Below, piece by piece: positions 3,679 through 34,776 of a DNA stretch of 40,868 nt. The stretch is from an uncultured Muribaculaceae bacterium (GTDB taxonomy: Bacteria; Bacillota_I; Bacilli_A; RF39; UBA660). The notes beneath the pieces are model-generated. The model saw only the letters and a list, made by a program, of their open reading frames with translations. It was not told the origin of the DNA and searched no databases. The DNA lies in the NCBI GenBank assembly GCA_964561805.1, contig CAZLQU010000001.1, positions 26,125 through 66,992 on the forward strand. The letters are read 5' to 3'. Position 1 is the stretch's first letter. Every line of letters begins with the position of its first letter. The translations under genes were made by a program, and so were the position numbers.

Positions 3679-3691
3679 AATGGTGACCAAA

Positions 3692-12860: not shown

Positions 12861-15455
12861 ATGAGAAAATATAATTTAATAATATTTATTATTTTATTAT
12901 TCTCTTTCAGTATTGATCATGCTTTTTGTGAAGAAGTTAATATTAAAACATATGATGCAAGTAGCGAGAACAATTTAAGTTTTTGGGAAAGTAAGATTAA
13001 AAATGCTAATTCCATTTCTATGGTTAAATCGATAGCCGATAAAAATAATGAGATAAATCATTTGTATATGGTTACTAAGTACTATTCGGCTCATCCTAAT
13101 GATGATATAACGTTACTATGTATTTCGGGTTTTTGCGATAATACACAAATTGATGAAGATAAAAAATTATCAATTAATTTAGATTTAGATTCATCTTTAA
13201 ATTATGATGATGTTAGAATTAAAATAAATTATTTATCTGTAAATAGGGAAGCACAGATTGAAATTAACGTGCTTGATTTTGATAGTTTAAGTTTTTATGT
13301 TTATGATGATAATAATGATTATGGTAGTTTTAAGATAGATGATGCTAGGTATTTAGGAGTATTTACAAGAAATGTTTTAATAAGTCAAAATCCTGATAAG
13401 TATAATTTAATTTATGAAGATAATTATGAAATTGTTTCTGAAAATTTGATGTTAAATAATGATTTAAAAAATAATTGTCATGATGGATGCGATTTAAAAA
13501 TTAAAATAATTCCTTTTGATAAATATCATGCATCTAGTTCCCATTTTGCAATTAGAGAAATTAAAATAGATGGATACAGAAATGGAGAAGTTTATCAAAA
13601 AGAAGTAATTAGAAAAATAAACAATCAACAAGTTATAAATGATATAAGAACAAGAATTGCGTATCGTATGTTTTATAGTGCTTCAGTTAAATATACTCCA
13701 AATAATAGTTTTACGCTGGCAGCTAGTGATAATTTAAACAATGTTAATGCAACATACAATAATGGCATATATTATTATGGATTACCTTATGGTGGAGAAA
13801 AGATTTCCTCTGTCGAAGAATTTAAAACTAGAATTGATAATTTAACTTATGATGAAGCAAATTCGATAAATGGTTTTTCTTGTTCTACTTCAGCGATGGA
13901 TGCAGTAACTAAAAATACTAATATATATACAAGCCTCGATTGGAGTGGCAAAGTCTTTTATTCTCCGGATACTAAATTAGTCGATTGTCCAAGTAGTATT
14001 AATGGTTATATTTCTAGTGCAAGTAGTACAATTGCAACGATTACTACGGAATGCAATAATATTGATAAAACTGCTTTGACAGGTTATACGGCGCCAGTGA
14101 TAAGAGAAAGAATAAGTGAGCAACAAATGTTTTATCGCTATGCAAATATCAATATTGGCGATTTAATTGTTCATAAAGAGTCATGCGTTGATAGTAATGG
14201 CAACGTTATTAGTAATTGTGCTGCTTCAGGACATACCAGATTAGTTACTGAAAAACCAATAATTGTATTTAAACAGGATCAAAATGGCAATTACATTATT
14301 GATGGAGAAAATAGTTATATTTATGTAACTGAAATTACCAAAAAAGATGTTAGTGAAACGCTTAGCGAATGGGATGATTGGTCAAATATTAATTGGAAAC
14401 AAGAAAATATAACTAATTTTAGAACAATGGAAAGAAAAATATATGGTAGTGGAGATTGTAATATTAATATTCAAACATCTTCACCGACAAAATTAGACTG
14501 TGAATTAGCCAATTCTCCAACAGAGTGGAATATTAGTTATAAATTATCGTTTAAAAGATTGTATGGTGAAACTAATTGGAATCATATTTATTTTCCTTTT
14601 ACATTTAATACATATAATGATATTATTACTAATGGTTTTGAGGTTCCATATGCTAAATTAATTTATAATAATCATGAAGCAATATATTATGATGATCGAT
14701 TATATAGTGATAATAATATAGTAACTAAAGAATTGGCAAGTGCAATTAAAACTAATAAACAATTGTTGGGAACAATAAAGACAAACTATAAATTGACAAA
14801 AATAAAATATGAAATAACATTGAAAGATAATAATATATTACAGTTTTTAGAATATCCGGTATATGCGACTAATAATATTCAAAATCGCTATTCAATGGCA
14901 TATGAGAATAATTTGTCGCAAGTGCTTGATAATTTTGACAATATTTCAAGAATAAAAATAACGGTTTTATCAGTTGGCCCTAAATTAGAAAATATAAACA
15001 ACAATGTTGTTAATGACAATGAACTTTATGATGAAATAAATGCATCTAATTCAATTGTTGTCTTTGATTATGATTATGATTCTTTACCAGAATATAAGGT
15101 AATTGATGAGAAAAATGTTGTGAGGACAAAAACTTCCTTGCTTAATAATTTAACGGTTAATAGTATAAAAGGGGCTAATGTAACAATTAATAGTTCTAAT
15201 AGCGAACTTGCTACAGGTGATGAAATCAATATAACATTTAATAATACGAACGATATTGTTAGTTATTATTTAGCATTTCCTGGTGATGTTAATGACAATA
15301 GTATAATTGATTTGGATGATGCAAAGATAATTGCTAGACATATTGTGGATAAAAATGTAATTATCAATGATGCCAATTTAATCGCCGCTGATTATAATGA
15401 TGATAATCAAATAAAAATGAATGATGTAGTTAAATTGTTAAAGAATATAAACTAG
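12861..15455 (+). CDS. Secreted 864-aa protein with a C-terminal dockerin-type (type I-like) duplicated Ca-binding module
   Basis: Signal peptide MRKYNLIIFIILLFSFSIDHAFC. The C-terminus GDVNDNSIIDLDDAKIIARHIV...ADYNDDNQIKMNDVVKLLKNI matches the duplicated dockerin F-hand segments (15279-15452). The central region is not assignable, but see the finding on Cys/His motifs. Confidence 0.6.
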   Translation: MRKYNLIIFIILLFSFSIDHAFCEEVNIKTYDASSENNLSFWESKIKNANSISMVKSIADKNNEINHLYMVTKYYSAHPNDDITLLCISGFCDNTQIDEDKKLSINLDLDSSLNYDDVRIKINYLSVNREAQIEINVLDFDSLSFYVYDDNNDYGSFKIDDARYLGVFTRNVLISQNPDKYNLIYEDNYEIVSENLMLNNDLKNNCHDGCDLKIKIIPFDKYHASSSHFAIREIKIDGYRNGEVYQKEVIRKINNQQVINDIRTRIAYRMFYSASVKYTPNNSFTLAASDNLNNVNATYNNGIYYYGLPYGGEKISSVEEFKTRIDNLTYDEANSINGFSCSTSAMDAVTKNTNIYTSLDWSGKVFYSPDTKLVDCPSSINGYISSASSTIATITTECNNIDKTALTGYTAPVIRERISEQQMFYRYANINIGDLIVHKESCVDSNGNVISNCAASGHTRLVTEKPIIVFKQDQNGNYIIDGENSYIYVTEITKKDVSETLSEWDDWSNINWKQENITNFRTMERKIYGSGDCNINIQTSSPTKLDCELANSPTEWNISYKLSFKRLYGETNWNHIYFPFTFNTYNDIITNGFEVPYAKLIYNNHEAIYYDDRLYSDNNIVTKELASAIKTNKQLLGTIKTNYKLTKIKYEITLKDNNILQFLEYPVYATNNIQNRYSMAYENNLSQVLDNFDNISRIKITVLSVGPKLENINNNVVNDNELYDEINASNSIVVFDYDYDSLPEYKVIDEKNVVRTKTSLLNNLTVNSIKGANVTINSSNSELATGDEINITFNNTNDIVSYYLAFPGDVNDNSIIDLDDAKIIARHIVDKNVIINDANLIAADYNDDNQIKMNDVVKLLKNIN

Positions 15456-17480: not shown

Positions 17481-18320
17481 GTGACTTACATAAAAGATAG
17501 TATCTATCATACTAGTTTACCAATTATGGTAATCGATGATAATCAAAGATTTAAAAAATATCCACAAATTGGGTATGGTGAAGAAGGATCTATACATAGA
17601 TATAATGATAAAAGAGCTTTTAAAGTATTCGATTTTTTTGAGGATAGAGAAAAATTAAAAAACAAGTTTAAAAAAATTGAAGAATTAGCAAGAATTAAGG
17701 ATAAGTCTTTTTGCTTTCCACAAGGTTTAGTAGGGTATCTTGATTTAAAAAAAGAGGGATATTTTATGGAACTAGTAAAACCGATGGATAAATGCAGTGA
17801 TTTTAGTAAACTGGATCAATTAAGAGATATGAAAAAGAGACTTGAATATCTGATAATGGCTGATAGGGCAATAGAGAGAATTCATAAAAAAGGAATTATT
17901 ATTGGAGATATTCGTGATGGAAATATCATGATTAATAAATGTGGCGAAGTTAAATTTATTGATACGGATAACTATAAGTATGGAGATTATGATTATGATT
18001 TAATTCCCACTAGAAGTAAAAAGTTTGAACACACTTACGGAAAAGAAATAAATGGTATAGATAATGATAAATTTGTCTTTACGATGATGGCTTTGCAATA
18101 TTTTATTCCTGGTCCTATTTTCTGGAAGCATAATGAGGTTGATTATTATAAAGAAATGGTTGAATTGCTTGAGGTAAGCGAAGAGGTAAAAGAAGGGTTA
18201 AGACTTATTTTATCTGATGCACCAGATAAACCATATGTTGGTAAAGTGTTAAAAAAAATTAATCCTGAGGAAATGATTATTTTACCTCAAAATGTTAAGA
18301 AATTAGAGCGAAAATATTAG
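17481..18320 (+). CDS. Soluble protein-kinase-like (ePK/APH fold) protein
   Basis: GTG start after a GGGGATGG SD and an extended -10 TGaTATAAT (17448-17456). RAFKVF is VAIK-like, IHKKGIIIGDIRDGNIMIN aligns to the HRDxKxxN catalytic loop keeping D and N, and KFIDTDN is DFG-like. No TM or sensor domain. Confidence 0.5.
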   Translation: MTYIKDSIYHTSLPIMVIDDNQRFKKYPQIGYGEEGSIHRYNDKRAFKVFDFFEDREKLKNKFKKIEELARIKDKSFCFPQGLVGYLDLKKEGYFMELVKPMDKCSDFSKLDQLRDMKKRLEYLIMADRAIERIHKKGIIIGDIRDGNIMINKCGEVKFIDTDNYKYGDYDYDLIPTRSKKFEHTYGKEINGIDNDKFVFTMMALQYFIPGPIFWKHNEVDYYKEMVELLEVSEEVKEGLRLILSDAPDKPYVGKVLKKINPEEMIILPQNVKKLERKY

Positions 18321-18417: not shown

Positions 18418-20019
18418 ATGAAAGATTCTTTTAAAAATAAAAATATTTTAGTTATTCTTTTTGAACTTTTGATTATTGCTTTAGGAATAATTGGCATTAC
18501 TTTTGCAACAAGTAAACTTCTTGATAGTAGGGCAGCAACGATGATTACTACCGATGAATATAATCTTGATTATGTAGGAGATAGTTATGTTACGATTAGT
18601 GACATTGAGCCAATGGATGATAGTCTAGTAAATTATGCGACAACTGAGAATGTTATTCGTTTAGCTTTTTCGGTTAAAGGTGTAAGAAATAATAATGATG
18701 ATAAATTAATATATGATGTAATGCTAAATGAGATGGATATCGATTGTTCATTATTAAATAAGTATACGAAATGGAATTTATATAAAAATGGAAAATTAAT
18801 ATCTAATGGTAGTTTAGATCCACTTTTTGATGGAGCCGTACTTAGCGATAGTATGAGACTTACAACAATTCAAGAAAATTTACCAAGATATGATAAAGAT
18901 TATGATAATTATGTACTAATATTTTGGATTAGTGAATCTTGTGATGATTTAGAGACTTGTGAATTGATTGATCAAAGTGATATAGTAAATAGCAAGATGA
19001 ACATGAAAGTATTTATTGCCCTTTATAGTGGTGCTAAAAAGAAATATGAGAGGGTACCTAATTATGATGGAACATGTGCTAACAAGCCAGAACTTTATAA
19101 TAATATGGTGCCAGTAAATTATAACAATGGTGAATGGGTTGTAGCAGATAAAGATAATGGTAATCAGTATAATTTATGGTATAGTTATGCTAATCAAAAA
19201 TGGGCTAATGCTGTCGTAGTCAACGATGCTAATAAATATCAAAATGTTGGTACTGTGATCGATAGTAGTGATGTTTTAGGTTACTTTGTATGGATTCCTA
19301 GATTTAGATATAAATTATGGAATGTAGGAAGTGAAATAACTGATAGTTATAATGCTTATGATGATGGTATTGATGTTGTCTTTGAAAATGGTTTAAATAA
19401 AACCGATAATGAAAAAGTTAACGGTAATTATTATACTCATCCAGCTTTTGGTGATAGTTTAAGAGGTGTTTGGGTTAGTAAATATGAGATTAGTAAAGAC
19501 AATGATATGTATCGCTTTGTCGGTGGTGTTGAAGGCTATTACGGTGATACTTTAGATAACTATAAAACAATTGCAACTACTATTAGTGATAGTTATAAAT
19601 TAGGTAGTAGGGCAGAAAGCCATATGATTAATAATCAAGAATGGGGAGCTACATTATATTTATCACATTCTAAATATGGTGTTTGTGCTGGAGATGGTTG
19701 CAGTAGTATTGCTACCAATGGAACATATATTGCTGGAAATAACAGACAGGATACCACAACTAGAAATATATATGGTGTATATGATATGGCTGGTGCTAGT
19801 GGCGAATATGTTTTAGGTAAATCTACTATCGGAACAGCAACATCAGAAGTTGTTTTAGCTAATAAAAATACATGGTATAATGGTATGGGAGCATTAAGTG
19901 ATAGAGACTATATCATTCGTGGCGGTTTAGATAAAAGTTTATTCTATTTTGGTGATATCAAAATGGATAGTACAGCCAATAGTACAAGAATATGTTTAAT
20001 TAGTAAAAAAGGTGATTAG
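18418..20019 (+). CDS. N-terminally anchored 533-aa surface protein with an N-terminal module resembling that of the giant proteins and a C-terminal FGE-sulfatase/SUMF1-like (C-type lectin fold) domain
   Basis: Signal-anchor NILVILFELLIIALGIIGITFATS. FGE-like motifs occur in canonical order: VWVSKYEIS, NQEWGATLY, IYGVYDMAGASGEYVLG, IIRGG. Confidence 0.5.
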   Translation: MKDSFKNKNILVILFELLIIALGIIGITFATSKLLDSRAATMITTDEYNLDYVGDSYVTISDIEPMDDSLVNYATTENVIRLAFSVKGVRNNNDDKLIYDVMLNEMDIDCSLLNKYTKWNLYKNGKLISNGSLDPLFDGAVLSDSMRLTTIQENLPRYDKDYDNYVLIFWISESCDDLETCELIDQSDIVNSKMNMKVFIALYSGAKKKYERVPNYDGTCANKPELYNNMVPVNYNNGEWVVADKDNGNQYNLWYSYANQKWANAVVVNDANKYQNVGTVIDSSDVLGYFVWIPRFRYKLWNVGSEITDSYNAYDDGIDVVFENGLNKTDNEKVNGNYYTHPAFGDSLRGVWVSKYEISKDNDMYRFVGGVEGYYGDTLDNYKTIATTISDSYKLGSRAESHMINNQEWGATLYLSHSKYGVCAGDGCSSIATNGTYIAGNNRQDTTTRNIYGVYDMAGASGEYVLGKSTIGTATSEVVLANKNTWYNGMGALSDRDYIIRGGLDKSLFYFGDIKMDSTANSTRICLISKKGD

Positions 20020-20037
20020 AAATAATCACCTTTTTTT
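20005..20037 (+). terminator. Rho-independent terminator
   Basis: AAAAAAGGTGATT-agaaat-AATCACCTTTTTTT, overlapping the stop codon. Confidence 0.75.
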
Positions 20038-20106: not shown

Positions 20107-20135
20107 TTGCAAATAATACTATATTTTGGTATACT
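20107..20135 (+). promoter_or_regulatory. Sigma-A type promoter of giant gene 2 (paralog of 3618-3646)
   Basis: TTGCAA (20107-20112), 17 nt, extended -10 TGgTATACT (TATACT 20130-20135). Confidence 0.55.
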
Positions 20136-20167: not shown

Positions 20168-20180
20168 ATTGGTGACCAAA

Positions 20181-23100
20181 ATGGAAAAGAAAAAAATTAC
20201 AATCCTTACAATTGTTGTTTTTGTCGTGGGTCTAATCATAGCAGGATCAAGCTATGCCTTTTGGTCGTGGACTAGTAATATAAATAAAAACTTAGTTTTT
20301 AATACTGCTAGTAATTTAAGAAATTATATTGTCTATAATGAAGGAGAATCAGCTTTTACTGGTGAACTTCAAGTAAGTAATAGCTATCAAACCGGAAGTG
20401 TACATGCAACTGTTTCAATTTATAAAACTACAAATGTTAATATGCTTGCTACATTACATATGGATGTTAATCAAATTGGCCCTAATATGAAAAATAGTAC
20501 GGCTTTAAAATGGGTAGTAACGGAAGGTACAGTATCAAATGTAGGAAGTGAACTTGCTCATGGTAATTTTGTTGGAGCAAATAATGGGGATTTATTAACA
20601 TTAGTACCTGATATAAATATTACGACTACAGAAGCATTCTATACAGTATGGATTTGGATAGATTCATCAGAAAATCCATCAGATAACATATCAGGTGAAA
20701 CCTTAGATACCGATATTTGGATGGAAATAAATCAAGTAGAGGGATCTGAAGATAGATATGAAATAACAAATACTAATGCTCATTATCAACAAGTTAGTGC
20801 AACAGTTGTAGATAATAAATACAAAGTAACTCGTTATGCCATAACGACAACAAATAGTGACCCATCTACTTGGACAACAATTACACCAACAACTGAACAA
20901 AACAATGTCTATACTTTAAATGAATCAGTAAGTGGTACAGGAACATATTATATTTGGTTTATGGATAGTGAAGGTCGTGTAACATGTGAACAAGTTGTTG
21001 TAACTGAAGTAGATACCACTAAACCAAGTTGTAGTTGGGGAGCGTTTACACCTAATACAGTTCAAAATAATGCGACATCTTCAGTAACATTAACATGTAC
21101 CGATAGTGAATCAGGAATAGGTGTATATAACTTACAAGCAAGCGATTTTACACCATCAAATAATAAGATAACGGTAACAAATGTAACTAGAGAAAGTGTA
21201 ACTAATGGATATAAATATACAATTACAGTAACTGGTACTACAAATGATGGTACATCACATCTTACAGTTGATGCTAACAAGATTAGAAATGGTGCTGGGT
21301 TAGGTAACTTAAGTACTTCATCTGGTGATATAAGTGTCGTAAATGTTATAAATATTACTTTGGATAATGCTAGTGCTACGACTAATGGTACAAGTACAAT
21401 TTATTTAAGTTATAATGATGGAATATATTTAGATAGTGGATTAATTAATCAAATGACGGATAGTACTAATCCAATTACAATACCTGTAAGAACATATTAT
21501 AGTTTTTTAGGTTATTATGATAATACGACTCAAATGATAGATAGTGATGGACATATTACAAGCAACTTTACTAATACACTTTATAGTAGTGCTAAGACCT
21601 TAAATGCACATTGGCAGGATACAACATCACCAATAGCTTCACTTTCAGTTAGTATTACTAATAATACGATAAATGCAACAGCGACTGTTTCAGATAATGG
21701 TGATGGTTTTGATGGAAACTATCATTGGTTAGTTTCAACAAGTAATACTTGTGATCAAAATGTTGATATAAATGATTTTACAACGACAACAACTAATACG
21801 TATTCACATGTAATGCAAGATAATAATTTATATTATGTATGTTTAATGGTTAAAGATAATGCTGATAATGAAACATATTCTGTTTCTCAAGGATTAAGTA
21901 ATATAGTAGTATCATTTAATTCAAAAACTGCAGACAATATATCATTTTCTAATAAATATGTAGCTTATAATCAAGTTTATGGTGAATTTCCAACTACAAC
22001 TAAAACAGGATATACATTAAAAGGTTGGAGTTTAGCCGAAGATGCTTCCTATATTCCTAATACATATCAGCAAGTTGAGTATCTTCAGTCTACAGGTACG
22101 CAATATATTGATACGGGATATATACCAAATGAAAACTCTAGGTTATGGTTAGATTATCAACCAACTGAAGCACAGTCAAAGATTTATGCTGGAGCTAGAA
22201 ATGAGTCTTCTTCACCAAAGGTATATTTTACAATTAATTCAGGATCTAATAATACTAAAATGTATGCTTCTTGGGGAACAACCGTAAATTACAATATAGG
22301 GCCAATGACAACCGATAGAGTGAGAACGGAGATTGGATCTGAAGGTATTTACTATAATGATGAATATGTAACAATGCCTGGAGAAACAGTATGGAGCAAT
22401 ATATCATATTCAGTATATTTATTTGCAGTACAAGAATCTAGTAATACAGCATCATTAAATGCAAGTGTAAAAATATATGAAGCCAAAATATATGAGGGAA
22501 ATACACTTATTCATCATATGATTCCATGTTATAGGAAAAGCGATAATGTTAGAGGAATGTATGATGCAATCAGTGGTGAATTTTATACTAATAGTGGAAC
22601 TGGTACATTTGGTATTGGTAGTGATGTAAACAATTATGTTACGGAATCAACAACTGTTAGCAAAAACGAAAATCACACATTATATGCTGTATGGAAAGAT
22701 GAAGAGGCACCAACTGGTACATTAACACTTTCAGATGACAATTGGATAATTACGGCTACGGTTAGTGCAAGTGATACAGGCTCTGGTGTAAAACCTAGAT
22801 ATGGTTTTAAAATGATTGATACAAATAATTGTAATTCATCAGTTACAGGATTTGTTGAGACAAGTGTTAATAGTTATACTTTTTCTGATTCGTTAAAATA
22901 CTATGTATGTGTTAGAATTCAAGATAACGAAGGCAATTATAATTATTTATCTCAAAGAATTCCAGCAAGTTATTACTTATATACTGGTGATGTACAATCA
23001 TTTACAGCACCTTCTGATGGATATTATTTTGTTGAAACATATGGTGCTCAGGGTGGAGAAGAGACAAATGGTGGATATTCTTCTGGATATATTGAACTGA

Positions 23101-26100
23101 ACGCTAATGATGTATTATACGTTTATGTTGGTGGAAGTGGAGCTGAACGTGATAGTACAGGTTTAGGTGGCTGGAATGGCGGAGGCAATACATTAGATAA
23201 TGGTAATGGTAAAAAAGGTCCTGCCGGTGGTGGTGCTACCGATATTAGACTTACTAATGGTGCTTGGGATAATGCAACATCACTTAATTCACGAATAATG
23301 GTTGCTGGTGGAGGTAGTGGTTGGTATGGCGTTGGTGGTACTTTAGTTGGTAAGCCTGGCCAAGAAACAAGTTATCAATATTATCAACACGTTGGAAAAG
23401 GAGGGGCTCAAACTGCCGGTGGAGGTGAACCAATTATTTATAGTACAGCTACTTCAAATGGTACGGCTGGTGGTTTTGGAACTGGAGGTACTGGCGGTGG
23501 AAGTAGAAGCGGCACAACAACAGGCGGCGGAGCAGGTGGTGGCGGTGGCTACTACGGTGGCTCTGGAGCATCTGGAATAGCTGATGGTGTATTAGGTGGT
23601 GGTGGCGGTTCGTCATTCATCTCAGGATATGCTGGAGCTAATGCAATAACGTCAGCATCAGATCGAACACATACGAATAATACTAAACATTATAGTAACA
23701 AATACTTTATTGATAATAAAATGACGGCTGGAGTAAATTCTGGTAATGGTAGAGCAAGAATAAAGCCAGTAGATAGTATTCCTCAAAGAGTAAATACTGA
23801 TCTTAATAATGTAAGATATGTTAAAGATTGCATAAGTGGAAATTCTCAAGACGATTATAATACTTGGGTTGAAATTGAAGTAATTGAGAATGGTGTCAAC
23901 ATAGCTGATGGTATAACTGCAACGGGTATTACGCCATACTATGGATATGATATATCATATTTAACAAATGGTGATATTACTCCTTTAGAATATGTACAAA
24001 GTTCAGTTATTGGTTCACCATCATGTGTGATACTTGACCTAGGTGAAACATATAACGTAGATGAAATTGCGGTATGGCATATTTGGAACGATGGAAGAAC
24101 ATATAATAATAATGTTACATATGTATCAAATGATGGCATATTATATGTACCAGTTATAAATAATCAAACACCAGAAACGTCAAATGGTAAAAGAGTAACA
24201 GCGTGGGATAATCCACTTGAAGATAATACTCCAAGAGCTGAATTTAATTATACTGGTGATTATCAAACATTTACTGTTCCAGAAAGTGGTTACTATAAAA
24301 TAGAAACTTGGGGAGCAGAAGGTGGCTTTGCCAATTATAGTACGAAATATAATGGTGGAGCTGGTGGTTATTCATCTGGTTATATAAATTTAACAGCTAA
24401 TGATACATTATACATATATGTAGGAGGCATGGGCTCATCAGTAAGTGGTACATCAAGCGCAACTGTTACTGATAATGGCTTTGGTTATAATGGCGGTGGG
24501 CCTGCTGGATTTTATGCATCAAATTCTAATGGTGGTGGCGGCGGCGGAGCTACTGACGTTAGAACAGTTAGTGGAGCATGGAATGATACTACATCACTTA
24601 ATTCAAGAATAATGGTTGCAGGTGGTGGTGGAGCTGCAAGATCACATTCTAGTACTCCAAGATACTCTGGCACAGGTGGTACTGGAGGTGGATTAATAGC
24701 TGGTAATGGTGTAGCTGGTAATACTTATTGTTATGCTCTTGGTATTGGAGGTAAACAAAACACAGCAGGAACTTCTACTACTTGTAGTAGTGATGGTCAT
24801 GCATATTCGAATAATGCTTTGTTTGGTTATGGATGGTATGATTATAGTACCACGGTTGCTTATCAAAGTGGCAATACTACTGCCGAAGGTGGAGGTGGTG
24901 GTTACTATGGTGGTGGTATTGGATATCACGCACCATCTGGTGGAGGTTCATCATTCATCTCTGGATATGCTGGCGTAAATGCTATAACATCCGCATCAGA
25001 TAGAACACATACAAATAATACAAAACATTATAGTAATAAATACTTTATAAATGGAAGTATGTCTAGTGGTGTAAATACTGGAAATGGTAAAGCAACGGTG
25101 ACATATGCTGGTGCCACAATGCCAAGAACTAATACAGATCTTAATAATGTAAGATATATTAAAGATTGTATAAATGGAAGTAGTTCAAATATAGGTAATC
25201 ATTGGGTTGAATTACAAGCAATACAAAATGGAATAAATTTAGCTAAAAATAAAGCTGTAACTGGCACTCATTCAGAAAAAACCGATCGACCATATAGTGT
25301 TATTACTGATGGATTGCTGCTAACTACTTCTACAATGTATGCAGCGCCATCATATGATGGTGGTATGCAATGTATCACAGTTGATTTAGGTGCAACATAT
25401 AATCTGGATGAAATAGCAATATGGCATTTTTATGATGATGGTAGAACATATTATGATAATACAACATCTGTATCTAGTGATAATATTTTCTTCATACCAG
25501 TTATTAATAGACAAGAAGCAGAAACAGCTAATGGTAAGAGAGTTAGTGCTTGGGATCAACCTCTTGCTGATAATGAGCCTAGAGCAATATATTATTATAT
25601 TGGTAATTATCAAACGTTTACGGCTCCACAAAGTGGATATTATAAGATTGAAGCATGGGGTGCTCAAGGTGGTGGTGGTCCTAAAGGTGGTTACGTATCA
25701 GGTTATATTAATTTAACCGCTAATGACACACTATATATTTATGCTGGTGGTAAGGGATTATCCTCAAACTCTAGTTCCGGAACTGGTGGCTATAATGGTG
25801 GTGGGTCTACTGAAGCAACTAGTGGGAAACGTGGGCCTACTGGCGGTGGAGCTACGGATATTAGATTAGTTAGTGGTACTTGGAACAATGCGACATCACT
25901 AAACTCAAGGATTATGGTTGCGGCTGGTGGCGGCGGATATTATAATACGGCAAGTTATGGTATCGGCGGTGGTTTGCTAGGAGTAGATGGAGCTGATTCT
26001 GCATACACATATTATGTAAGTGTCGGTAAAGCCGGTATGCAACGATCTGGTGGAGCAACACCTACTAAAGATAGTGGAGCTAGTACAAATGGAACAGCTG

Positions 26101-27611
26101 GTGGATTTGGAACAGGTGGAAAGGGTGGTGCTAGTGGTACTGGTGTATCTACTGGCGGCGGCTCTGGTGGTGGCGGTGGCTACTACGGTGGATCTGGAGC
26201 TTCTGGGCTATCGAATGGTTCATTTGGTGCTGGTGGTGGTTCCTCATTTATCTCAGGATATGCTGGAGTTAATGCGATAACATCGGCATCAGATAGGACA
26301 CATACAAATAATACAAAACATTATAGTAATAAATACTTTATTGATAGTACAATGTCATCTGGTGTTAGTTCAGATAATGGTCAAGTTATTATTAAATATG
26401 CGGGTCCATCGCATTCAAGTGTAAATAGCGCTCTTAATGGTATTAGATATATTAAGGATTGCATCAATGGTAATACATTAAATACATACAATCAATGGAT
26501 AGAGATTCAAGCAATTCAAGATGGTGTTAATCTTGCCAAAAACAAAACTATAACTGGTACAGCGAATGCTGAATCTGGTTATGAATATACATATATTGTT
26601 GATGGTATGATTGATAATTCTAAATATGGTAGAACCCCAAGCAATAGTGGGCTTCAATGTGTAACAATTGATTTGGAAAATACATATGATTTGGATGAAG
26701 TAGCCGTATGGCATGTATGGACTGATGGTAGATCATTTAATGATAATGTAACATATGTATCAAGTAATAATACGGATTGGGCAATTATTATTGCTAATGA
26801 GGATGTTGAAACCCATAATGGTAAGAGATTCAATAGATGGCAGGAATATAATCAATACATTGAATGCGAGGCAGGAACATATCTTGCTGCTGGAGGAACG
26901 ACATGTATTACATGTCCAGCAGGATCAGCTTGCCCGGGTGGTATATATGAATATAGTATGACTAGTGCTAATGGTATTAATGCTTGTGCTGCCGGTAAAT
27001 TCTCAACTGGTGGAGCTGAAAGTTGTACTAACTGTGTTGCGGGATCATATAGTGGAACTGGAGCTTCAGGATGTATAGCTTGTGCTGCTGGTAAAACAAA
27101 TACAGCAGGATCAGGTAGTTGTTCATCTAATTGTTCAAATAGTGCTGGTGTAAGTACATGGTACACACCAACATGGAATAGTAACAATACAATGACTAAT
27201 TCATGTAAGGTAAATACTTGTAGTAGTTCTTACCATATAAATGGCAATGCTTGTGCTAAGAATTCTTATACCAAGACACAAGTTGATTGTGTGTATACAT
27301 CATATAAAGCAACTTCTAGTAGTGCTAGTTTCACATATGGTGGAAATCAAAGTGGGTGTACTTCAGCTTGCTCTGCATATAGTGGCACGTGTTCTGCTTT
27401 AAATGGTAGTCCTTCATCAGCTACCTTGTGGCGCTGCACGTACACCAAATATACTTGTCCAAACTATGGTGCTACGTTAGCAAGTAATCATAGATGTTAT
27501 TACACTACGACACAGACAACTACATCGACAACAACAGATTGTACACCAAAGACAGAGTTTAGTACATGTAATTATAGTAATCGTGGTAAATCTAATGTTA
27601 CTTGTAGTTAA
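20181..27611 (+). CDS. Giant (about 2,476 aa) cell-surface protein with the same N-terminal module as giant 1, Ig-like domains, three [glycine-rich ALK-GRD-like + discoidin/F5-F8 type C-like] units, ephrin-receptor-like CxxC repeats and the family C-terminal Cys-rich domain
   Basis: ORF is open 20169-27611, with the start placed at ATG 20181 (GGTGA SD). N-terminus is MEKKKITILTIVVFVVGLIIAGSSYAFWSW. Three recurrences of YQ(S/T)FT(A/V)P.SGYY..E.(Y/W)GA(Q/E)GG, GGGATD(I/V)R, SRIMVA(G/A)GGG, GGGGYYGG and GGGSSFISGYAG.NAITSASDRTHTNNTKHYSNKYFI. Each is followed by NVRY(V/I)KDC...DLG.TY.(V/L)DE(I/V)A(V/I)WH...DGR(T/S). Confidence 0.9.
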   Translation: MEKKKITILTIVVFVVGLIIAGSSYAFWSWTSNINKNLVFNTASNLRNYIVYNEGESAFTGELQVSNSYQTGSVHATVSIYKTTNVNMLATLHMDVNQIGPNMKNSTALKWVVTEGTVSNVGSELAHGNFVGANNGDLLTLVPDINITTTEAFYTVWIWIDSSENPSDNISGETLDTDIWMEINQVEGSEDRYEITNTNAHYQQVSATVVDNKYKVTRYAITTTNSDPSTWTTITPTTEQNNVYTLNESVSGTGTYYIWFMDSEGRVTCEQVVVTEVDTTKPSCSWGAFTPNTVQNNATSSVTLTCTDSESGIGVYNLQASDFTPSNNKITVTNVTRESVTNGYKYTITVTGTTNDGTSHLTVDANKIRNGAGLGNLSTSSGDISVVNVINITLDNASATTNGTSTIYLSYNDGIYLDSGLINQMTDSTNPITIPVRTYYSFLGYYDNTTQMIDSDGHITSNFTNTLYSSAKTLNAHWQDTTSPIASLSVSITNNTINATATVSDNGDGFDGNYHWLVSTSNTCDQNVDINDFTTTTTNTYSHVMQDNNLYYVCLMVKDNADNETYSVSQGLSNIVVSFNSKTADNISFSNKYVAYNQVYGEFPTTTKTGYTLKGWSLAEDASYIPNTYQQVEYLQSTGTQYIDTGYIPNENSRLWLDYQPTEAQSKIYAGARNESSSPKVYFTINSGSNNTKMYASWGTTVNYNIGPMTTDRVRTEIGSEGIYYNDEYVTMPGETVWSNISYSVYLFAVQESSNTASLNASVKIYEAKIYEGNTLIHHMIPCYRKSDNVRGMYDAISGEFYTNSGTGTFGIGSDVNNYVTESTTVSKNENHTLYAVWKDEEAPTGTLTLSDDNWIITATVSASDTGSGVKPRYGFKMIDTNNCNSSVTGFVETSVNSYTFSDSLKYYVCVRIQDNEGNYNYLSQRIPASYYLYTGDVQSFTAPSDGYYFVETYGAQGGEETNGGYSSGYIELNANDVLYVYVGGSGAERDSTGLGGWNGGGNTLDNGNGKKGPAGGGATDIRLTNGAWDNATSLNSRIMVAGGGSGWYGVGGTLVGKPGQETSYQYYQHVGKGGAQTAGGGEPIIYSTATSNGTAGGFGTGGTGGGSRSGTTTGGGAGGGGGYYGGSGASGIADGVLGGGGGSSFISGYAGANAITSASDRTHTNNTKHYSNKYFIDNKMTAGVNSGNGRARIKPVDSIPQRVNTDLNNVRYVKDCISGNSQDDYNTWVEIEVIENGVNIADGITATGITPYYGYDISYLTNGDITPLEYVQSSVIGSPSCVILDLGETYNVDEIAVWHIWNDGRTYNNNVTYVSNDGILYVPVINNQTPETSNGKRVTAWDNPLEDNTPRAEFNYTGDYQTFTVPESGYYKIETWGAEGGFANYSTKYNGGAGGYSSGYINLTANDTLYIYVGGMGSSVSGTSSATVTDNGFGYNGGGPAGFYASNSNGGGGGGATDVRTVSGAWNDTTSLNSRIMVAGGGGAARSHSSTPRYSGTGGTGGGLIAGNGVAGNTYCYALGIGGKQNTAGTSTTCSSDGHAYSNNALFGYGWYDYSTTVAYQSGNTTAEGGGGGYYGGGIGYHAPSGGGSSFISGYAGVNAITSASDRTHTNNTKHYSNKYFINGSMSSGVNTGNGKATVTYAGATMPRTNTDLNNVRYIKDCINGSSSNIGNHWVELQAIQNGINLAKNKAVTGTHSEKTDRPYSVITDGLLLTTSTMYAAPSYDGGMQCITVDLGATYNLDEIAIWHFYDDGRTYYDNTTSVSSDNIFFIPVINRQEAETANGKRVSAWDQPLADNEPRAIYYYIGNYQTFTAPQSGYYKIEAWGAQGGGGPKGGYVSGYINLTANDTLYIYAGGKGLSSNSSSGTGGYNGGGSTEATSGKRGPTGGGATDIRLVSGTWNNATSLNSRIMVAAGGGGYYNTASYGIGGGLLGVDGADSAYTYYVSVGKAGMQRSGGATPTKDSGASTNGTAGGFGTGGKGGASGTGVSTGGGSGGGGGYYGGSGASGLSNGSFGAGGGSSFISGYAGVNAITSASDRTHTNNTKHYSNKYFIDSTMSSGVSSDNGQVIIKYAGPSHSSVNSALNGIRYIKDCINGNTLNTYNQWIEIQAIQDGVNLAKNKTITGTANAESGYEYTYIVDGMIDNSKYGRTPSNSGLQCVTIDLENTYDLDEVAVWHVWTDGRSFNDNVTYVSSNNTDWAIIIANEDVETHNGKRFNRWQEYNQYIECEAGTYLAAGGTTCITCPAGSACPGGIYEYSMTSANGINACAAGKFSTGGAESCTNCVAGSYSGTGASGCIACAAGKTNTAGSGSCSSNCSNSAGVSTWYTPTWNSNNTMTNSCKVNTCSSSYHINGNACAKNSYTKTQVDCVYTSYKATSSSASFTYGGNQSGCTSACSAYSGTCSALNGSPSSATLWRCTYTKYTCPNYGATLASNHRCYYTTTQTTTSTTTDCTPKTEFSTCNYSNRGKSNVTCS
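22971..26840 (+). repeat. Three diverged tandem coding units (about 1.25-1.35 kb each) of glycine-rich domain plus discoidin-like domain
   Basis: Units start near 22971, 24240 and 25588. Protein motifs are conserved while many codons differ synonymously, so this is an old duplication under constraint. Confidence 0.8.
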
Positions 27612-27637
27612 AGTCAATACGAAAGTATTGGCTTTTC
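27611..27637 (+). terminator. Rho-independent terminator of giant gene 2 (paralog of 10631-10658)
   Basis: AAGTCAATAC-gaaa-GTATTGGCTT (one U-G pair) followed by TTC. Starts at the last base of the stop codon. Confidence 0.7.
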
Positions 27638-27674
27638 TTATTCTTTGTTATATAATTATATTAGGTGATAAGGT

Positions 27675-28127
27675 ATGAATAGGAAAGGTTTTACTTTAGT
27701 TGAACTTTTAGCAACAATTGTATTACTGGCATTAGTCGTAGGAATTAGTTCTTATGCGATTACTAATATAATAAAGAGTTCAAAGGAAAAAAATTATAAT
27801 TTACTTATAAGTAATGTTAAAGATGCTAGTGAATTATATTATGAAGAATGTAGGTATGCTGATGGTAATAATAGTGGGATAACTTGTACAGTTAATGCTG
27901 ATGGTAGTTATCAAGTTACCTTGGGTAATTTAGTTAGTTATGGATATTTAAAAGGAAATGGAACAATTAAATCATCAACAAATGAGCAAAATATTGGAAA
28001 GTATACAATACTTAATCCTAAGGATAATAAGTCAATTGCTAGTTGTAAGATAAAAATTACTTATACTTCTGGCAAAATAAATGTTAGTGCTATCACTACT
28101 ACTGGAAGTTGTCCTGTGGAGTATTAA
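27675..28127 (+). CDS. Type IV pilin / pseudopilin-like protein (prepilin N-terminal cleavage/methylation motif)
   Basis: MNRKG|FTLVELLATIVLLALVVG has Gly-1, Phe+1 and Glu+5 followed by a hydrophobic helix. The 150-aa product has two Cys pairs in the globular part. Candidate promoter TTGGCT-17-TATAAT at 27628-27656, and an AGGTGA SD. Confidence 0.8.
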   Translation: MNRKGFTLVELLATIVLLALVVGISSYAITNIIKSSKEKNYNLLISNVKDASELYYEECRYADGNNSGITCTVNADGSYQVTLGNLVSYGYLKGNGTIKSSTNEQNIGKYTILNPKDNKSIASCKIKITYTSGKINVSAITTTGSCPVEY

Positions 28128-28128
28128 G

Positions 28129-28779
28129 ATGATTGGTAATGATTGGGATAAGGTATTGGAAGAAGAGTATAAAAAGGAATATTTTTTAAAGATAAAAGAT
28201 ATCGTTAGAAATGAATATCAAAGTAAGACTATTTTTCCACCGGCTAAACGTGTTTTTTATGCTTTTAGAGAAACCCCGTATAAAGATACGAAGGTTGTTA
28301 TTTTGGGACAAGATCCATATCATGGTGTAGGTGAAGCAAATGGCTTATGTTTTTCGGTAAACGAGGGGATAACTATGCCACCATCGCTTAAAAATATATA
28401 TAAAGAATTATATGATGATTTAGGAATAGCAAGGACAAACACGGATTTATCTGATTGGGCACATGAGGGAGTATTACTTTTAAATAGTGTTTTAACTGTC
28501 GAAAAAGATAAACCAGCCAGTCATAAATTTGTTGGTTGGGAAGAATTTACGGATAATGTTATTAAAAAATTAAATGAAAAAGATACACCAGTTGTATTTA
28601 TTCTTTGGGGTAACTACGCTAAAGGAAAAGCAAAATATATCACAAATCCTAAGCATTTAATTATTAGTTCTAGTCATCCAAGCCCATTTTCAGTTAATTA
28701 TGGTTTTTTTGGAAGTAAACCTTTTTCTAGGACAAATAAATTTTTAAAAGATAATGGCTTAAAAGAAATAGAGTGGTAA
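28129..28779 (+). CDS. ung: Uracil-DNA glycosylase
   Basis: Start at ATG 28129 (MIGNDWDKVL...). Motifs GQDPYHG, GLCFSV, LLLNSVLTV and HPSPFS. The ORF-track 5' extension overlaps the pilin gene and looks spurious. Confidence 0.92.
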   Translation: MIGNDWDKVLEEEYKKEYFLKIKDIVRNEYQSKTIFPPAKRVFYAFRETPYKDTKVVILGQDPYHGVGEANGLCFSVNEGITMPPSLKNIYKELYDDLGIARTNTDLSDWAHEGVLLLNSVLTVEKDKPASHKFVGWEEFTDNVIKKLNEKDTPVVFILWGNYAKGKAKYITNPKHLIISSSHPSPFSVNYGFFGSKPFSRTNKFLKDNGLKEIEW

Positions 28780-31234: not shown

Positions 31235-32338
31235 ATGAGTGAACTAAAAATCATTGTACCAGAAAATTTTAAGGAGTTTGGAGACAAGGTAAACAAAAGA
31301 ATTCAAACAATTAGGAAGACAAATGATAATTTCTTGGTGAATACTTCATTAGTAAGATTTAATAATGGTGAGGGGAAAGCAGTAATTAAAGAATCGCTTC
31401 GTGATAAAGACTTATATATTATGAGCGATGTTAGTAATTATGATGTGTCTTACAATTATTATGGAAGGACTCATTATATGAGTCCGGATGAACATTTTAT
31501 GGATATTAAAAGAATACTAAGTGCTGAGTGTGGACATGCTAGTAAAAGAACAGTAGTTATGCCATATTTGTATCAATCTAGACAAGATAAAAAAGATTCT
31601 AGGGAAAGTTTGGATTGTGCACTTGCTCTTAAAGAACTTGAATATATGGGAGTTAATGAAATTGTTACTTGTGATGTTCATAATAAAAGTGTTATGAATG
31701 CTGTTCCTAATATGGCATTTGAGAATATGTATCTTGGAGATATTATGCTACTTGATTTAATTGAACATGAAAAAATTCATGATTTTGATAAATTTGTATG
31801 TATCTCACCAGATGAAGGAGCAATGAAAAGAGCTAGATTCTTTTCTGACTTGCTTGGTAATGTTGGTATTGGCTCATTTTATAAGCAAAGAGATTATACG
31901 AAAGTTATTAAAGGGAAAAATCCAATTATTGATCATAGGTTTTTAGGACCAAGTGATATGGAAGGAAAATATGTTATTGTCGCTGATGATATGATTGCTT
32001 CAGGAGGTTCAATTTTAGATACAGCTGAAGCAATAAAGAAACTTGGTGTTGATAAAATATTTTTAATCGTTACATTTGCTTTGTTCACTGAAGGCGTTGA
32101 AAAATTTGAAGAGGCATATGAAAAAGGCATAATCAATAGGGTATATGCTTCAAATGTTAGCTATGTTCCAGAATATATAAAGAAAATGAAATGGTTTAGA
32201 TCAGTTGATTGTTCTGAGAAAATTGCAATGATTATTAGTGAACTTAATTATGGTAATAGTATTGGTGAACTTATCAGCGGTAGAGTAGAGACGGCTGTTA
32301 AGATAAAGAAATTGAGGAAAAAATATGAAACTAAATAA
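31235..32338 (+). CDS. prs: Ribose-phosphate pyrophosphokinase (PRPP synthetase) family protein, long form (367 aa)
   Basis: VRFNNGEGKAVIKESLRDKDLYIM, VVMPYLYQSRQDKK (compare PYxxYARQDR), ISPDEGAMKRAR, VIVADDMIASGGSILDTA (PRPP loop). Confidence 0.8.
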   Translation: MSELKIIVPENFKEFGDKVNKRIQTIRKTNDNFLVNTSLVRFNNGEGKAVIKESLRDKDLYIMSDVSNYDVSYNYYGRTHYMSPDEHFMDIKRILSAECGHASKRTVVMPYLYQSRQDKKDSRESLDCALALKELEYMGVNEIVTCDVHNKSVMNAVPNMAFENMYLGDIMLLDLIEHEKIHDFDKFVCISPDEGAMKRARFFSDLLGNVGIGSFYKQRDYTKVIKGKNPIIDHRFLGPSDMEGKYVIVADDMIASGGSILDTAEAIKKLGVDKIFLIVTFALFTEGVEKFEEAYEKGIINRVYASNVSYVPEYIKKMKWFRSVDCSEKIAMIISELNYGNSIGELISGRVETAVKIKKLRKKYETK

Positions 32339-32654
32339 AAAAGGATTTACATTAATTGAATTACTTGCAGTGGTTGTTATATTGCTTGCAATATCTGTAA
32401 TGGCAATATCATCAATAAGTGCAGCAATTGAAAGAAATAAAGCAAAGCAAGATAATGCTAAGAAAGAAGTAATTGTCAGTTATGCCAAAATATATTATGA
32501 AGATCACAAAAACAGTTTAGGTTTATCAGGTTGTATTCCAATTGGTAGTCTTGGATTATCAAGTGAAGAGATGACAGCTTCAAATGGTGAACCATTTCCA
32601 GGTGGTGTAAGATATAATAATGGTAGTTTTGAATATGTTGATAGTTGCTCTTAG
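32325..32654 (+). CDS. ComGC-like major pseudopilin / type IV pilin (109 aa)
   Basis: MKLNKKG|FTLIELLAVVVILLAISVMAI is a canonical N-methylation motif with Glu+5. Overlaps the prs 3' end by 14 nt. Confidence 0.85.
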   Translation: MKLNKKGFTLIELLAVVVILLAISVMAISSISAAIERNKAKQDNAKKEVIVSYAKIYYEDHKNSLGLSGCIPIGSLGLSSEEMTASNGEPFPGGVRYNNGSFEYVDSCS

Positions 32655-33621: not shown

Positions 33622-33647
33622 AAAAAAGAAATATAATTTCTTTTTTT
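33621..33647. terminator. Bidirectional terminator between the convergent pilin operon and the SEDS gene
   Basis: AAAAAAAGAAAT-ata-ATTTCTTTTTTT, with A-tract and T-tract flanks. Confidence 0.7.
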
Positions 33648-34776
33648 AATTGGTATATCTTAAATGTTGATTTGAAATATTAAAAACTATTCCTAAAAGA
33701 AGCATATACGATAATAATGAAGAACCACCATATGAAATAAAGGGAAGCGTTATTCCCATAATAGGAAGAAGTCCAATAGTCATGGCAATATTATATATTT
33801 GACTAAAAGTAAGAACAGCAATAATTCCACCTAAGGAATATTTATCAGTTTGATTTGTTGTTTTAATAGCATAATTAATTAATGTTAAGTCAAAGTAGAG
33901 AATGGTAATAATTAGAATGATGGCTCCTAAAAAACCGGTATTGGAAGCAAATACGGAAAAGATAAAATCAGTCTGCATTTCCGGGAAATAGATAGGAGTT
34001 TTATTAATACCATGACCGGTAGTACCGGCAGAACCAATAGCAGTTAGTGAGTTTTTTAACTGAAGGCCATCAGCTGATGACCAATTCGTAATTCTATCCA
34101 TACGATAAAAGAAACTTGTACCAAATATTTTGATAAATAAATCTTGCTTTAGGTAGTAAATTAAAAAGAAACCAGTTAATAATAAAGTAATGATAATGAT
34201 GGTTAAGATAAACCATCTTTTTCTAAACCCACCAATAAATAACATCATGAAGGTAATAATTAAATACATAATAACGGCTCCAGTATCAGGTTCTATGAAT
34301 GTTAAGATGGAAGGAATAAAAACAATAAATAAAACTTTTAATAAGAATTTTAGTTCATCAAAGATAGTGGGATTATGATATGTTTCATTAAAATCATTGA
34401 TCATTCTTGAGAGGGTTATTATTAAAAATATTTTCATGAATTCGCTTGGTTGAAAAGTGCCAATTAAAGGTATCTTAAACCAGCAAGTAGCATTATTGAC
34501 AGTAACACCGAATGGTAGGACAAGTGCTAATAAAATAATTCCAACTAGATAAAAAATAAAGGCATTTCGATAGAGAAATTTATTACCGATAGTCATTGTT
34601 AAATAAGCAACGATGATACCAATAAAATACCAAATTATTTGTTTTGACCAAAGATTATTATATTCAACTGATAATAACTTTTTAGTTGAATAAATAGAAA
34701 TAATGCTTATCACAAAAAAAATAAATATGGGAATTAAAATGCTCAATTCAACTTTATATTTTGATACTTGTTTCAT
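33646..34776 (-). CDS. SEDS family peptidoglycan glycosyltransferase (FtsW/RodA/SpoVE)
   Basis: 376 aa with about 10 TM segments. Motifs QPSEFMK, PDTGAVIM, PEMQTDFIFSVFA and GITLPFISYGGSS. Confidence 0.88.
   Translation of the reverse strand: MKQVSKYKVELSILIPIFIFFVISIISIYSTKKLLSVEYNNLWSKQIIWYFIGIIVAYLTMTIGNKFLYRNAFIFYLVGIILLALVLPFGVTVNNATCWFKIPLIGTFQPSEFMKIFLIITLSRMINDFNETYHNPTIFDELKFLLKVLFIVFIPSILTFIEPDTGAVIMYLIITFMMLFIGGFRKRWFILTIIIITLLLTGFFLIYYLKQDLFIKIFGTSFFYRMDRITNWSSADGLQLKNSLTAIGSAGTTGHGINKTPIYFPEMQTDFIFSVFASNTGFLGAIILIITILYFDLTLINYAIKTTNQTDKYSLGGIIAVLTFSQIYNIAMTIGLLPIMGITLPFISYGGSSLLSYMLLLGIVFNISNQHLRYTN

Follow-up and report, generated by a model that had tools for sequence, protein, structure and literature searches.

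This analysis concerns a stretch of 40,868 nucleotides (nt) of contig CAZLQU010000001.1 from an uncultured bacterium, called here the window, and within it one gene on the + strand (20181..27611, complete from ATG to stop) that encodes a predicted surface protein of 2476 amino acids (aa). The protein carries three tandem units, each made of a glycine-rich domain (GRD) of the type found in the animal receptors ALK and LTK (domain 1) and a trailing beta-sandwich domain (domain 2). Profile searches and structure prediction confirmed domain 1 as an ALK/LTK-type TG module (TNF-like and glycine-rich) homologous to the animal ALK/LTK GRD, and domain 2 belongs, in our reading and at modest E-values, to the discoidin/CBM32 superfamily in a circularly permuted form. 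As to function, we lean somewhat towards a modular surface protein, secreted or anchored at its N-terminus, from Bacilli that have a wall and live in gut or rumen; it would present three two-domain ligand-recognition heads in series and be encoded by an accessory cassette.

A single long open reading frame (ORF, 20169..27611, +; 2480 aa from its TTG start) contains the whole three-unit array. ATG 20181 is the likely true start, since GGTGA sits 5 nt 5' of it and the relative P0124 starts at the equivalent residue; the resulting product has the length of 2476 aa that an earlier note, made from the letters of this DNA without database searches, had given. Motif searches and MAFFT alignment delimited the units at aa 935-1357, 1358-1806 and 1807-2233 in ORF numbering (nt 22971-24239, 24240-25586 and 25587-26867), and all motifs that the note had quoted for them are present. 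Pfam assigns the whole protein to PF12810 (ALK_LTK_GRD, formerly Gly_rich) with 356.7 bits in three stretches. Against a curated gathering threshold of 24.5 bits, the family is also found in each unit alone, in agreement with the membership proposed earlier: 116.5 bits (E 2.6e-33) for the GRD of unit 1, a TNF-like sandwich with glycine runs and 25% Gly (22971..23786, +), 139.5 bits (E 2.3e-40) for that of unit 2 (24240..25124, +) and 125.0 bits (E 6.3e-36) for that of unit 3 (25587..26417, +).

The kinship to ALK and LTK suggested in the note required a family profile to be seen among PDB sequences, because a single-sequence phmmer search with unit 2 did not reach ALK or LTK at E<=1. A profile of 66 family members matched Caenorhabditis elegans SCD-2 (7lir, E 1.3e-13), human ALK (E ~2e-9) and LTK (E 2.6e-6), with alignments to all three extending from the Y.VP..G.Y.I...GA.GG start to G.SFIS. 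An AlphaFold2 model of the entire unit 2, built with the family alignment, reached a mean predicted local distance difference test (pLDDT) of 92.1 and a predicted template-modelling score (pTM) of 0.92; in a Foldseek search of the PDB its ranks 1-21 were all ALK/LTK TG domains (E 9e-8 to 6e-6, probability 1.0), followed by the tail tip of mycobacteriophage Bxb1 (E 2e-3) and then by the fibre of cyanophage Pam3 (E 0.1). The structural comparison that the note had called for thus came out in favour of its proposal. The template-modelling (TM) scores to ALK/LTK are modest (0.25-0.46 on target), which is expected since the fold consists largely of non-regular glycine helices.

The units are composed of 23-25% Gly with the typical runs, and DSSP assigns long stretches of the unit 2 model, at high pLDDT, to neither helix nor strand. 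Domain 1 would be pictured as a TNF-like beta-sandwich from which glycine runs extend, such runs packing as a rigid polyglycine-II lattice in the solved ALK, LTK and phage structures; the structure papers published in Nature in 2021 reportedly describe the ALK/LTK runs as a packed lattice of polyglycine-II helices. In solved structures the GRD is a stiff scaffold (PMC9608196), and the domain layout of ALK and LTK with their glycine-rich module has been described (PMC10605310). Against predicted viral structures, the unit 2 model found 97 matches at E<1e-3, the best down to 4e-16; among them are cyanophage virion proteins and proteins annotated as tail fibres in the Bacillus phages JL and CP-51. 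Several of these viral matches are labelled 'receptor protein-tyrosine kinase', a name transferred automatically from ALK.

The three units are 52-56% identical in pairs over ~420 aligned aa (51-64% for the GRD and 44-50% for domain 2). Within them lies a near-invariant block of 37 aa, GGGSSFISGYAG(A/V)NAITSASDRTHTNNTKHYSNKYFI, which shows one A/V difference among its three copies (23601..23711, 24939..25049 and 26232..26342, all +); the copy in unit 2 is modelled at pLDDT 90-97. Comparison of the codons gave 10-13 synonymous changes per pair of copies, with a proportion of synonymous differences (pS) of 0.39-0.50 and of nonsynonymous differences (pN) of 0-0.012, a constraint with a binomial p of ~1e-11 to 1e-14 given the units' mean pN of 0.29-0.34. 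For whole units the Nei-Gojobori method gave a synonymous divergence (dS) of 0.92-1.08, a nonsynonymous divergence (dN) of 0.36-0.45 and dN/dS of 0.33-0.49, ratios which are approximate since dS is near saturation; by domain, dN/dS was 0.29-0.47 in the GRD, 0.36-0.56 in the trailing domain and ~0 in the block. The longest exact nucleotide identity between units is 21-44 nt, which together with the synonymous divergence rules out recent gene conversion as the cause of the block's invariance. By these measures the unit copies are old and the block is kept by selection and not by conversion, because its pN stays at 0-0.012 despite a pS of 0.39-0.50 and exact matches are short. Both the near-invariance with synonymous differences and the purifying selection had been anticipated from the sequence, the block then being described as 30 aa long. 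In the wider family only GGSS(F/Y)ISG(Y/H/F).G ... HYS..F..M of the block is conserved, and the loop AGVNAITSASDRTHTNNTK within it, variable there, is restricted to the subfamily that the window protein represents. Lying where the GRD ends, the block would, we propose, contribute to a binding surface or else form the interface with the CBM32-like domain.

Domain 2 (~140 aa) occupies 23787..24239, 25125..25586 and 26418..26867 (all +) in units 1, 2 and 3. The copy in unit 1 (PF22633, E 0.085) aligns with the family profile of the domain, that in unit 2 (PF22633, E 0.0013; PF00754, E 0.0038) yields, when modelled separately with AlphaFold, eight strands at pLDDT 92.5, and that in unit 3 (PF22633, E 0.74) is part of both the native and the permuted domain alignments; all these Pfam scores are sub-threshold. 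The evidence for the superfamily comes from the relatives. A native-order profile of 43 trimmed homologous domains found 11 matches in the PDB, all CBM32 (E 8e-4 to 0.75), namely the domains of NagJ, GH31, the chitosanase DD, AlyQ and hyaluronidase CBM32 modules, and among the 43 domains themselves Pfam recognises PF22633 (F5_F8_type_C_2) in 39 (best E 7e-9) and PF00754 in 31 (best E 7.6e-8). The native-order alignments start at profile position ~40, at the NIAKGK motif, and end 30-40 residues short of the CBM32 C-terminus. The N-terminal segment left unaligned, VRYIKDC.NG....N.W.ELQAI, resembles the last two strands of the canonical discoidin domain (aRYvRi......w.sl.Elevy), so it was moved to the C-terminus in all sequences and the search was repeated.

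The permuted profile found 20 matches in the PDB. One is an uncharacterised protein (E 0.42); the other 19 are carbohydrate-binding modules or enzymes active on carbohydrates, namely CBM32 modules, alginate lyases, a beta-hexosaminidase and two Sm-hPAF chains that resemble F-type lectins. The CBM32 of AlyQ (7d29), which in native order aligned at E 0.011 over profile positions 54-134, was then matched end to end, with positions 13-137 (of 137) in the profile facing residues 16-135 (of 149) in the chain at E 1.4e-4. In Pfam the gain was small, with PF22633 in 39 of 42 permuted domains (best E 1.6e-9) and PF00754 in 34 of 42 (best E 7.5e-9), and the PF00754 alignment of unit 2 grew from profile positions 13-82 to 13-109. 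The missing strands of the eight-strand jelly-roll align when they are moved from the N-terminus, and its canonical strand order appears not to be that of domain 2. Domain 2 would thus have its last two canonical strands (VRYIKDC...WVELQAI) relocated to the N-terminus and stapled there by a Cys pair, C310 and C378 in unit 2 numbering (in KDC and QC.T.DLG), which is invariant in 66 of 66 aligned sequences; the pair would link the transplanted strand to the core and suits an extracellular protein. A circular permutation would explain why the Pfam scores are weak and also why a fold search that depends on sequence order failed. The discoidin-like label given to the trailing domain in the earlier note consequently stands at the level of the family (PF22633 in 39 of 43 homologous domains), with the two reservations that the window's own copies are sub-threshold and that the domain 2 model has no significant fold match.

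These units are widespread. With unit 2 as query, a word-indexed search gave at least 2469 proteins at E<=1e-5. The majority have 450-800 aa and one unit; they come from metagenomes and from metagenome-assembled genomes (MAGs) labelled 'Bacilli bacterium' and are called, where named, 'glycine-rich (domain-containing) protein'. An exhaustive hidden Markov model (HMM) search with a three-unit profile matched 10,923 clusters at 50% identity at E<=1e-3 and 1,124 at E<=1e-30; both domains are covered in ~90 of the best 150 matches. By motif count, several relatives have two units, P0122 has four and P0121 (3846 aa) has 5-7, and some relatives are as long as 7000 aa with up to 11 GRD stretches. In P0007 and P0011 a type IV prepilin leader, MKQRGFTLVELL, precedes one unit. 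The architecture is not rare, contrary to what the note had implied, and the triple array stands toward the upper end of the family and is not unique in it. The window protein is an additional member of a large, annotated and functionally uncharacterised family, and not a new kind of system.

The gene itself varies between close genomes. The two closest ones (L001 and L002) have a collinear backbone that lacks three large ORFs of the window (3680-10621, 12861-15455 and the GRD gene), and in L002 the orthologues of 18418-20019 and 27675-28127, which flank the GRD gene here, are only 118 bp apart. The N-terminal 476 aa (20181-21614) are 95.6% identical to P0124 and 72.5% to P0133, and the remainder of those proteins differs, which points to distal modules having been shuffled by recombination behind a conserved module at the N-terminus. 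Of the two units in P0124, one is 68.7% identical to unit 2, which makes it closer to unit 2 than unit 2 is to its own neighbour units. The gene found 3' of P0124 is not the pilin-like gene found 3' of the window gene, so a shared locus is not shown. By these genome comparisons the GRD gene is an accessory, mosaic cassette, because it is absent from the corresponding site of L001 and L002 and shares its N-terminus with P0124, which carries different units.

We infer multivalent ligand or glycan binding for this protein, partly from its phage tail-fibre homologues. In a Klebsiella phage fibre that recognises lipopolysaccharide (LPS), host-range mutations map to the glycine-rich domain (PMC12671077); the ALK/LTK module binds cytokines; the PDB relatives of domain 2 are carbohydrate-binding; and there are relatives borne on pilins (P0007 and P0011). 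It is on such grounds that ligand recognition is proposed. Each unit would act as a head that recognises a ligand, most likely a glycan carried by host mucus, a dietary polymer or another microbe. The GRD would serve as a stiff scaffold presenting variable loops, as at phage tail-fibre tips and in ALK, and the CBM32-like domain would contribute binding of the lectin type; the pTM of 0.92 suggests that both domains of a unit are packed together rigidly. Avidity would result from having three heads in series, which the stalk of ~900 aa would project beyond the wall. A more ambitious version of this proposal, which we consider possible and still doubtful, is that the GRD and the circularly permuted CBM32-like domain form a hitherto undescribed, self-contained bacterial recognition supradomain, used on giant wall-distal proteins and on type IV pilins of uncultured gut Bacilli, with the 37-aa block as its ligand-binding or inter-domain hinge site.

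Several results weigh against a surface-exposed, glycan-binding array. The three window copies of domain 2 remain below the gathering thresholds of 27.8 bits for PF22633 and 28.2 bits for PF00754 (E 0.0013-0.74, at most 20.1 bits). A Foldseek search of the PDB with the isolated domain 2 model found nothing significant (best E 0.28), and confirmation of the 'discoidin' label at the level of the fold failed with it. When the window's three domain sequences were permuted singly, their Pfam scores shifted by ~1 bit or less, so the permutation rests mainly on one profile search. In the translation neither an LPXTG cell-wall anchor nor a C-terminal transmembrane segment is visible, and surface retention is for this reason assumed. 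Finally, a literature search for the function of bacterial PF12810, Gly_rich or GRD proteins, for which the earlier note had stated that none was known, found nothing relevant and no binding experiment on any bacterial member.

Other roles would place the same domains in a different light. If the glycine lattices and beta-sandwiches built a long, protease-resistant fibre or surface layer, the protein would be a structural coat or spacer with no specific ligand. The stiffness of the GRD in solved structures (PMC9608196) suits such a role, as do the length and repetitiveness of the window protein and of relatives with up to 7000 aa and 11 GRD stretches. We find it rather unlikely, however, since the gene is accessory and mosaic and not core, CBM32-type domains are typically binding modules (the PDB matches of domain 2 are carbohydrate-binding) and single units on pilins fit adhesion better than a coat. 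An enzyme, or a protein associated with one, appears improbable. In that case the protein would act on a polysaccharide, with the block (..SGYAG.NAITSASDRTHTNNTKHYS..) as catalytic or cofactor site and the CBM32-like domain as targeting module. The block is extremely constrained and contains many polar residues (D, R, H, T, N, S, Y), CBM32 is normally appended to carbohydrate-active enzymes (the PDB matches include NagJ, GH31, chitosanase, AlyQ and hyaluronidase) and the Klebsiella phage paper leaves both 'LPS binding or catalysis' possible for GRD residues (PMC12671077). On the other hand, Pfam, NCBIfam and PDB searches detected no catalytic family anywhere in the protein, and the loop portion of the block is variable in the wider family, which is unusual for a catalytic site.

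A phage-derived receptor-binding protein, whether the tail fibre of a prophage, a tailocin fibre or a remnant in the chromosome, would agree with the abundance of GRDs in phage fibres and with the gene being an insertion relative to close genomes. This is highly improbable in view of the Sec-type signal or anchor at the N-terminus, the promoter-like and terminator-like sites that the gene has of its own, and the lack of any N-terminal helical domain for trimerisation or baseplate docking; housekeeping genes lie on both flanks with no other phage gene in 40 kb, and on this gene context a prophage origin was rejected. The ligand-recognition array remains the reading that we prefer.

The N-terminus, MEKKKITILTIVVFVVGLIIAGSSYA (20181..20258, +), with a KKK n-region, a hydrophobic core and SYA ahead of F, looks by eye like a Sec signal peptide or signal anchor. 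The stalk that follows (20259..22970, +; ~900 aa) has no Pfam family above threshold, a weak Flg_new match at aa 581-626 (E ~1e-3) being below the cut-off, and the N-terminal 930 aa have no match among PDB sequences. Behind the units comes a Cys-rich tail of 247 aa with 23 Cys, or 24 if the last residue of unit 3 is counted (26868..27608, +), in which neither a Pfam family above threshold (a weak DUF7631 match was seen) nor a match among PDB sequences was found. Its Cys residues show CxxC-type spacing, and a tail 52% identical to it terminates the relative P0126; ALK too has an EGF-like Cys-rich module after its GRD, a parallel in position. The whole 2476-aa protein has no match in NCBIfam. 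A consensus scan placed a promoter-like site (TTGCAA, 17-nt spacer, TG, TATACT) at 20107..20135 (+), with a terminator-like hairpin that would close the upstream gene 5' of it (20005-20036), and another terminator-like hairpin directly 3' of the stop codon (27610..27635, +). The window has 29% G+C and is coding nearly all on the + strand. Over the glycine-rich units (22001-28000) G+C is 36-38%, compared with 25-30% in the flanks, which is most simply due to GGN glycine codons and not to foreign origin, the N-terminal part of the gene having 29%.

The neighbouring genes are of the housekeeping type: an AMP-binding enzyme, FolD, a helicase, a class II aminoacyl-tRNA synthetase, a uracil-DNA glycosylase (UDG), a radical SAM enzyme, MscS, phosphoribosyl pyrophosphate (PRPP) synthetase, RNase J and FtsW/RodA. 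Identity of the synthetase (GlyRS) to its counterparts in MAGs of uncultured bacteria from rumen and gut, labelled Bacilli, Clostridiales or Tenericutes, does not exceed 89%. FtsW/RodA (33646-34776, -) and a protein with PASTA and polysaccharide-deacetylase domains (38060-39319, +) indicate that the organism makes peptidoglycan, although some related MAGs are labelled Tenericutes or Mollicutes. ORF 3680-10621 (+) encodes 2313 aa, in which Pfam sees six repeats of Flg_new (Listeria-Bacteroides) and, weakly, pAdhesive_11; its absence from L001 and L002 marks it, on comparison of the three genomes, as a further accessory surface-protein insertion. ORF 12861-15455 (+; 864 aa), without a Pfam family, is missing between the helicase and a 174-aa ORF in both genomes, and ORF 17481-18320 (+; 279 aa), with a sub-threshold protein-kinase match (E 1e-4), is present in L001 and has no match in L002. 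Two small ORFs amid the housekeeping genes (27675-28127 and 32325-32654, both +) have a prokaryotic N-terminal methylation motif of the type IV pilin-like kind and are kept in L002; no link between them and the GRD gene is shown, and the relatives P0007 and P0011 are themselves pilins. The UDG ORF (28081-28779, +) overlaps the first of these by 47 nt, and its L002 match begins at residue 17, which suggests that the true UDG start is probably further downstream.

The interest of these proteins lies partly in their number, since bacterial PF12810 proteins dominate a family from which the ligand-binding domain of two oncogenic receptors, ALK and LTK, takes its name. Confidently modelled units (pLDDT 92), a conserved patch and a lectin-like partner make the window protein a reasonable experimental handle on bacterial GRDs, and the apparent permutation accounts for the databases' under-calling of the CBM32-like domain in such proteins. 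If the units turn out to bind glycans of host or microbial origin, this would account for a large class of accessory proteins on the surface of little-known, uncultured Bacilli from gut and rumen, and would tie together the three uses to which one unusual fold is put, in phage fibres, in bacterial adhesins and in the cytokine receptors of animals. Should the supradomain proposal also be true, its characterisation would provide the first function for a bacterial PF12810 protein and a point of reference, in prokaryotes or phages, for how the ligand-binding module of metazoan ALK/LTK originated.

Among known systems, the TG supradomain of ALK, LTK and SCD-2 (PDB 7lir, 7lrz, 7nx1 and others) belongs to the same PF12810 family and provides the best fold matches of unit 2. 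The motifs Y..G.Y.I...GA.GG, GGGAT, (I/V)AaGGGG, GGGGYyGG and G.SFIS are common to it and to the bacterial units. Unlike ALK, which binds ALKAL cytokines, and LTK, the window protein is devoid of a kinase, a transmembrane helix and MAM/LDLa or EGF modules; Pfam finds no kinase family in it, and the translation has no hydrophobic segment after the N-terminal one. The bacterial units differ further by an extra loop after SFIS (the subfamily-specific part of the block), by the CBM32-like domain behind and by their tandem arrangement. Phage tips that combine TNF-like domains with glycine-rich ones (Pam3 gp24, 7ypx and 7yfw; Klebsiella TFP_Y; Bxb1, 9d93) are of the same fold class with weaker Foldseek E-values (2e-3 to 0.1), and phage tail-fibre tips are extracellular recognition devices for which a receptor-binding role has been documented or proposed. 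In phages the proteins form trimeric fibres that have a helical domain for docking at the N-terminus and a chaperone, whereas the window protein has a putative signal peptide and a long stalk, carries its three units on a single chain together with a CBM32-like partner domain, and has no phage neighbours. It shows none of the features of the Pam3 gp24 type (docking domain, phage gene neighbourhood and chaperone), and 7ypx was reached only at E 0.1.

With CBM32 and F5/F8 type C domains (for example Clostridium perfringens NagJ, 4a42 and 4a3z; GH31, 4lks; AlyQ, 7d29; the Paenibacillus chitosanase DD, 2rv9), domain 2 has in common the core DG...W/Y...(Q)C.T.DLG..Y.ldEi and the strands RY(I/V)K...W.E.q.., and it differs from them in apparently placing the last two canonical strands first, in its invariant Cys pair and in being fused to a GRD and not to an enzyme. 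The closest counterparts are proteins of uncultured Bacilli, those named 'Glycine-rich domain-containing protein' by NCBI (P0042, P0081 and P0118) together with P0121, P0122 and P0124, which share the same two-domain unit at 45-69% identity and the same block, and among which tandem arrays of 2 to ~7 units occur. They differ from the window protein in having mostly a single unit, other N-terminal modules (pilin leader, LamG, Flg_new or Ig-like) and other C-terminal tails.

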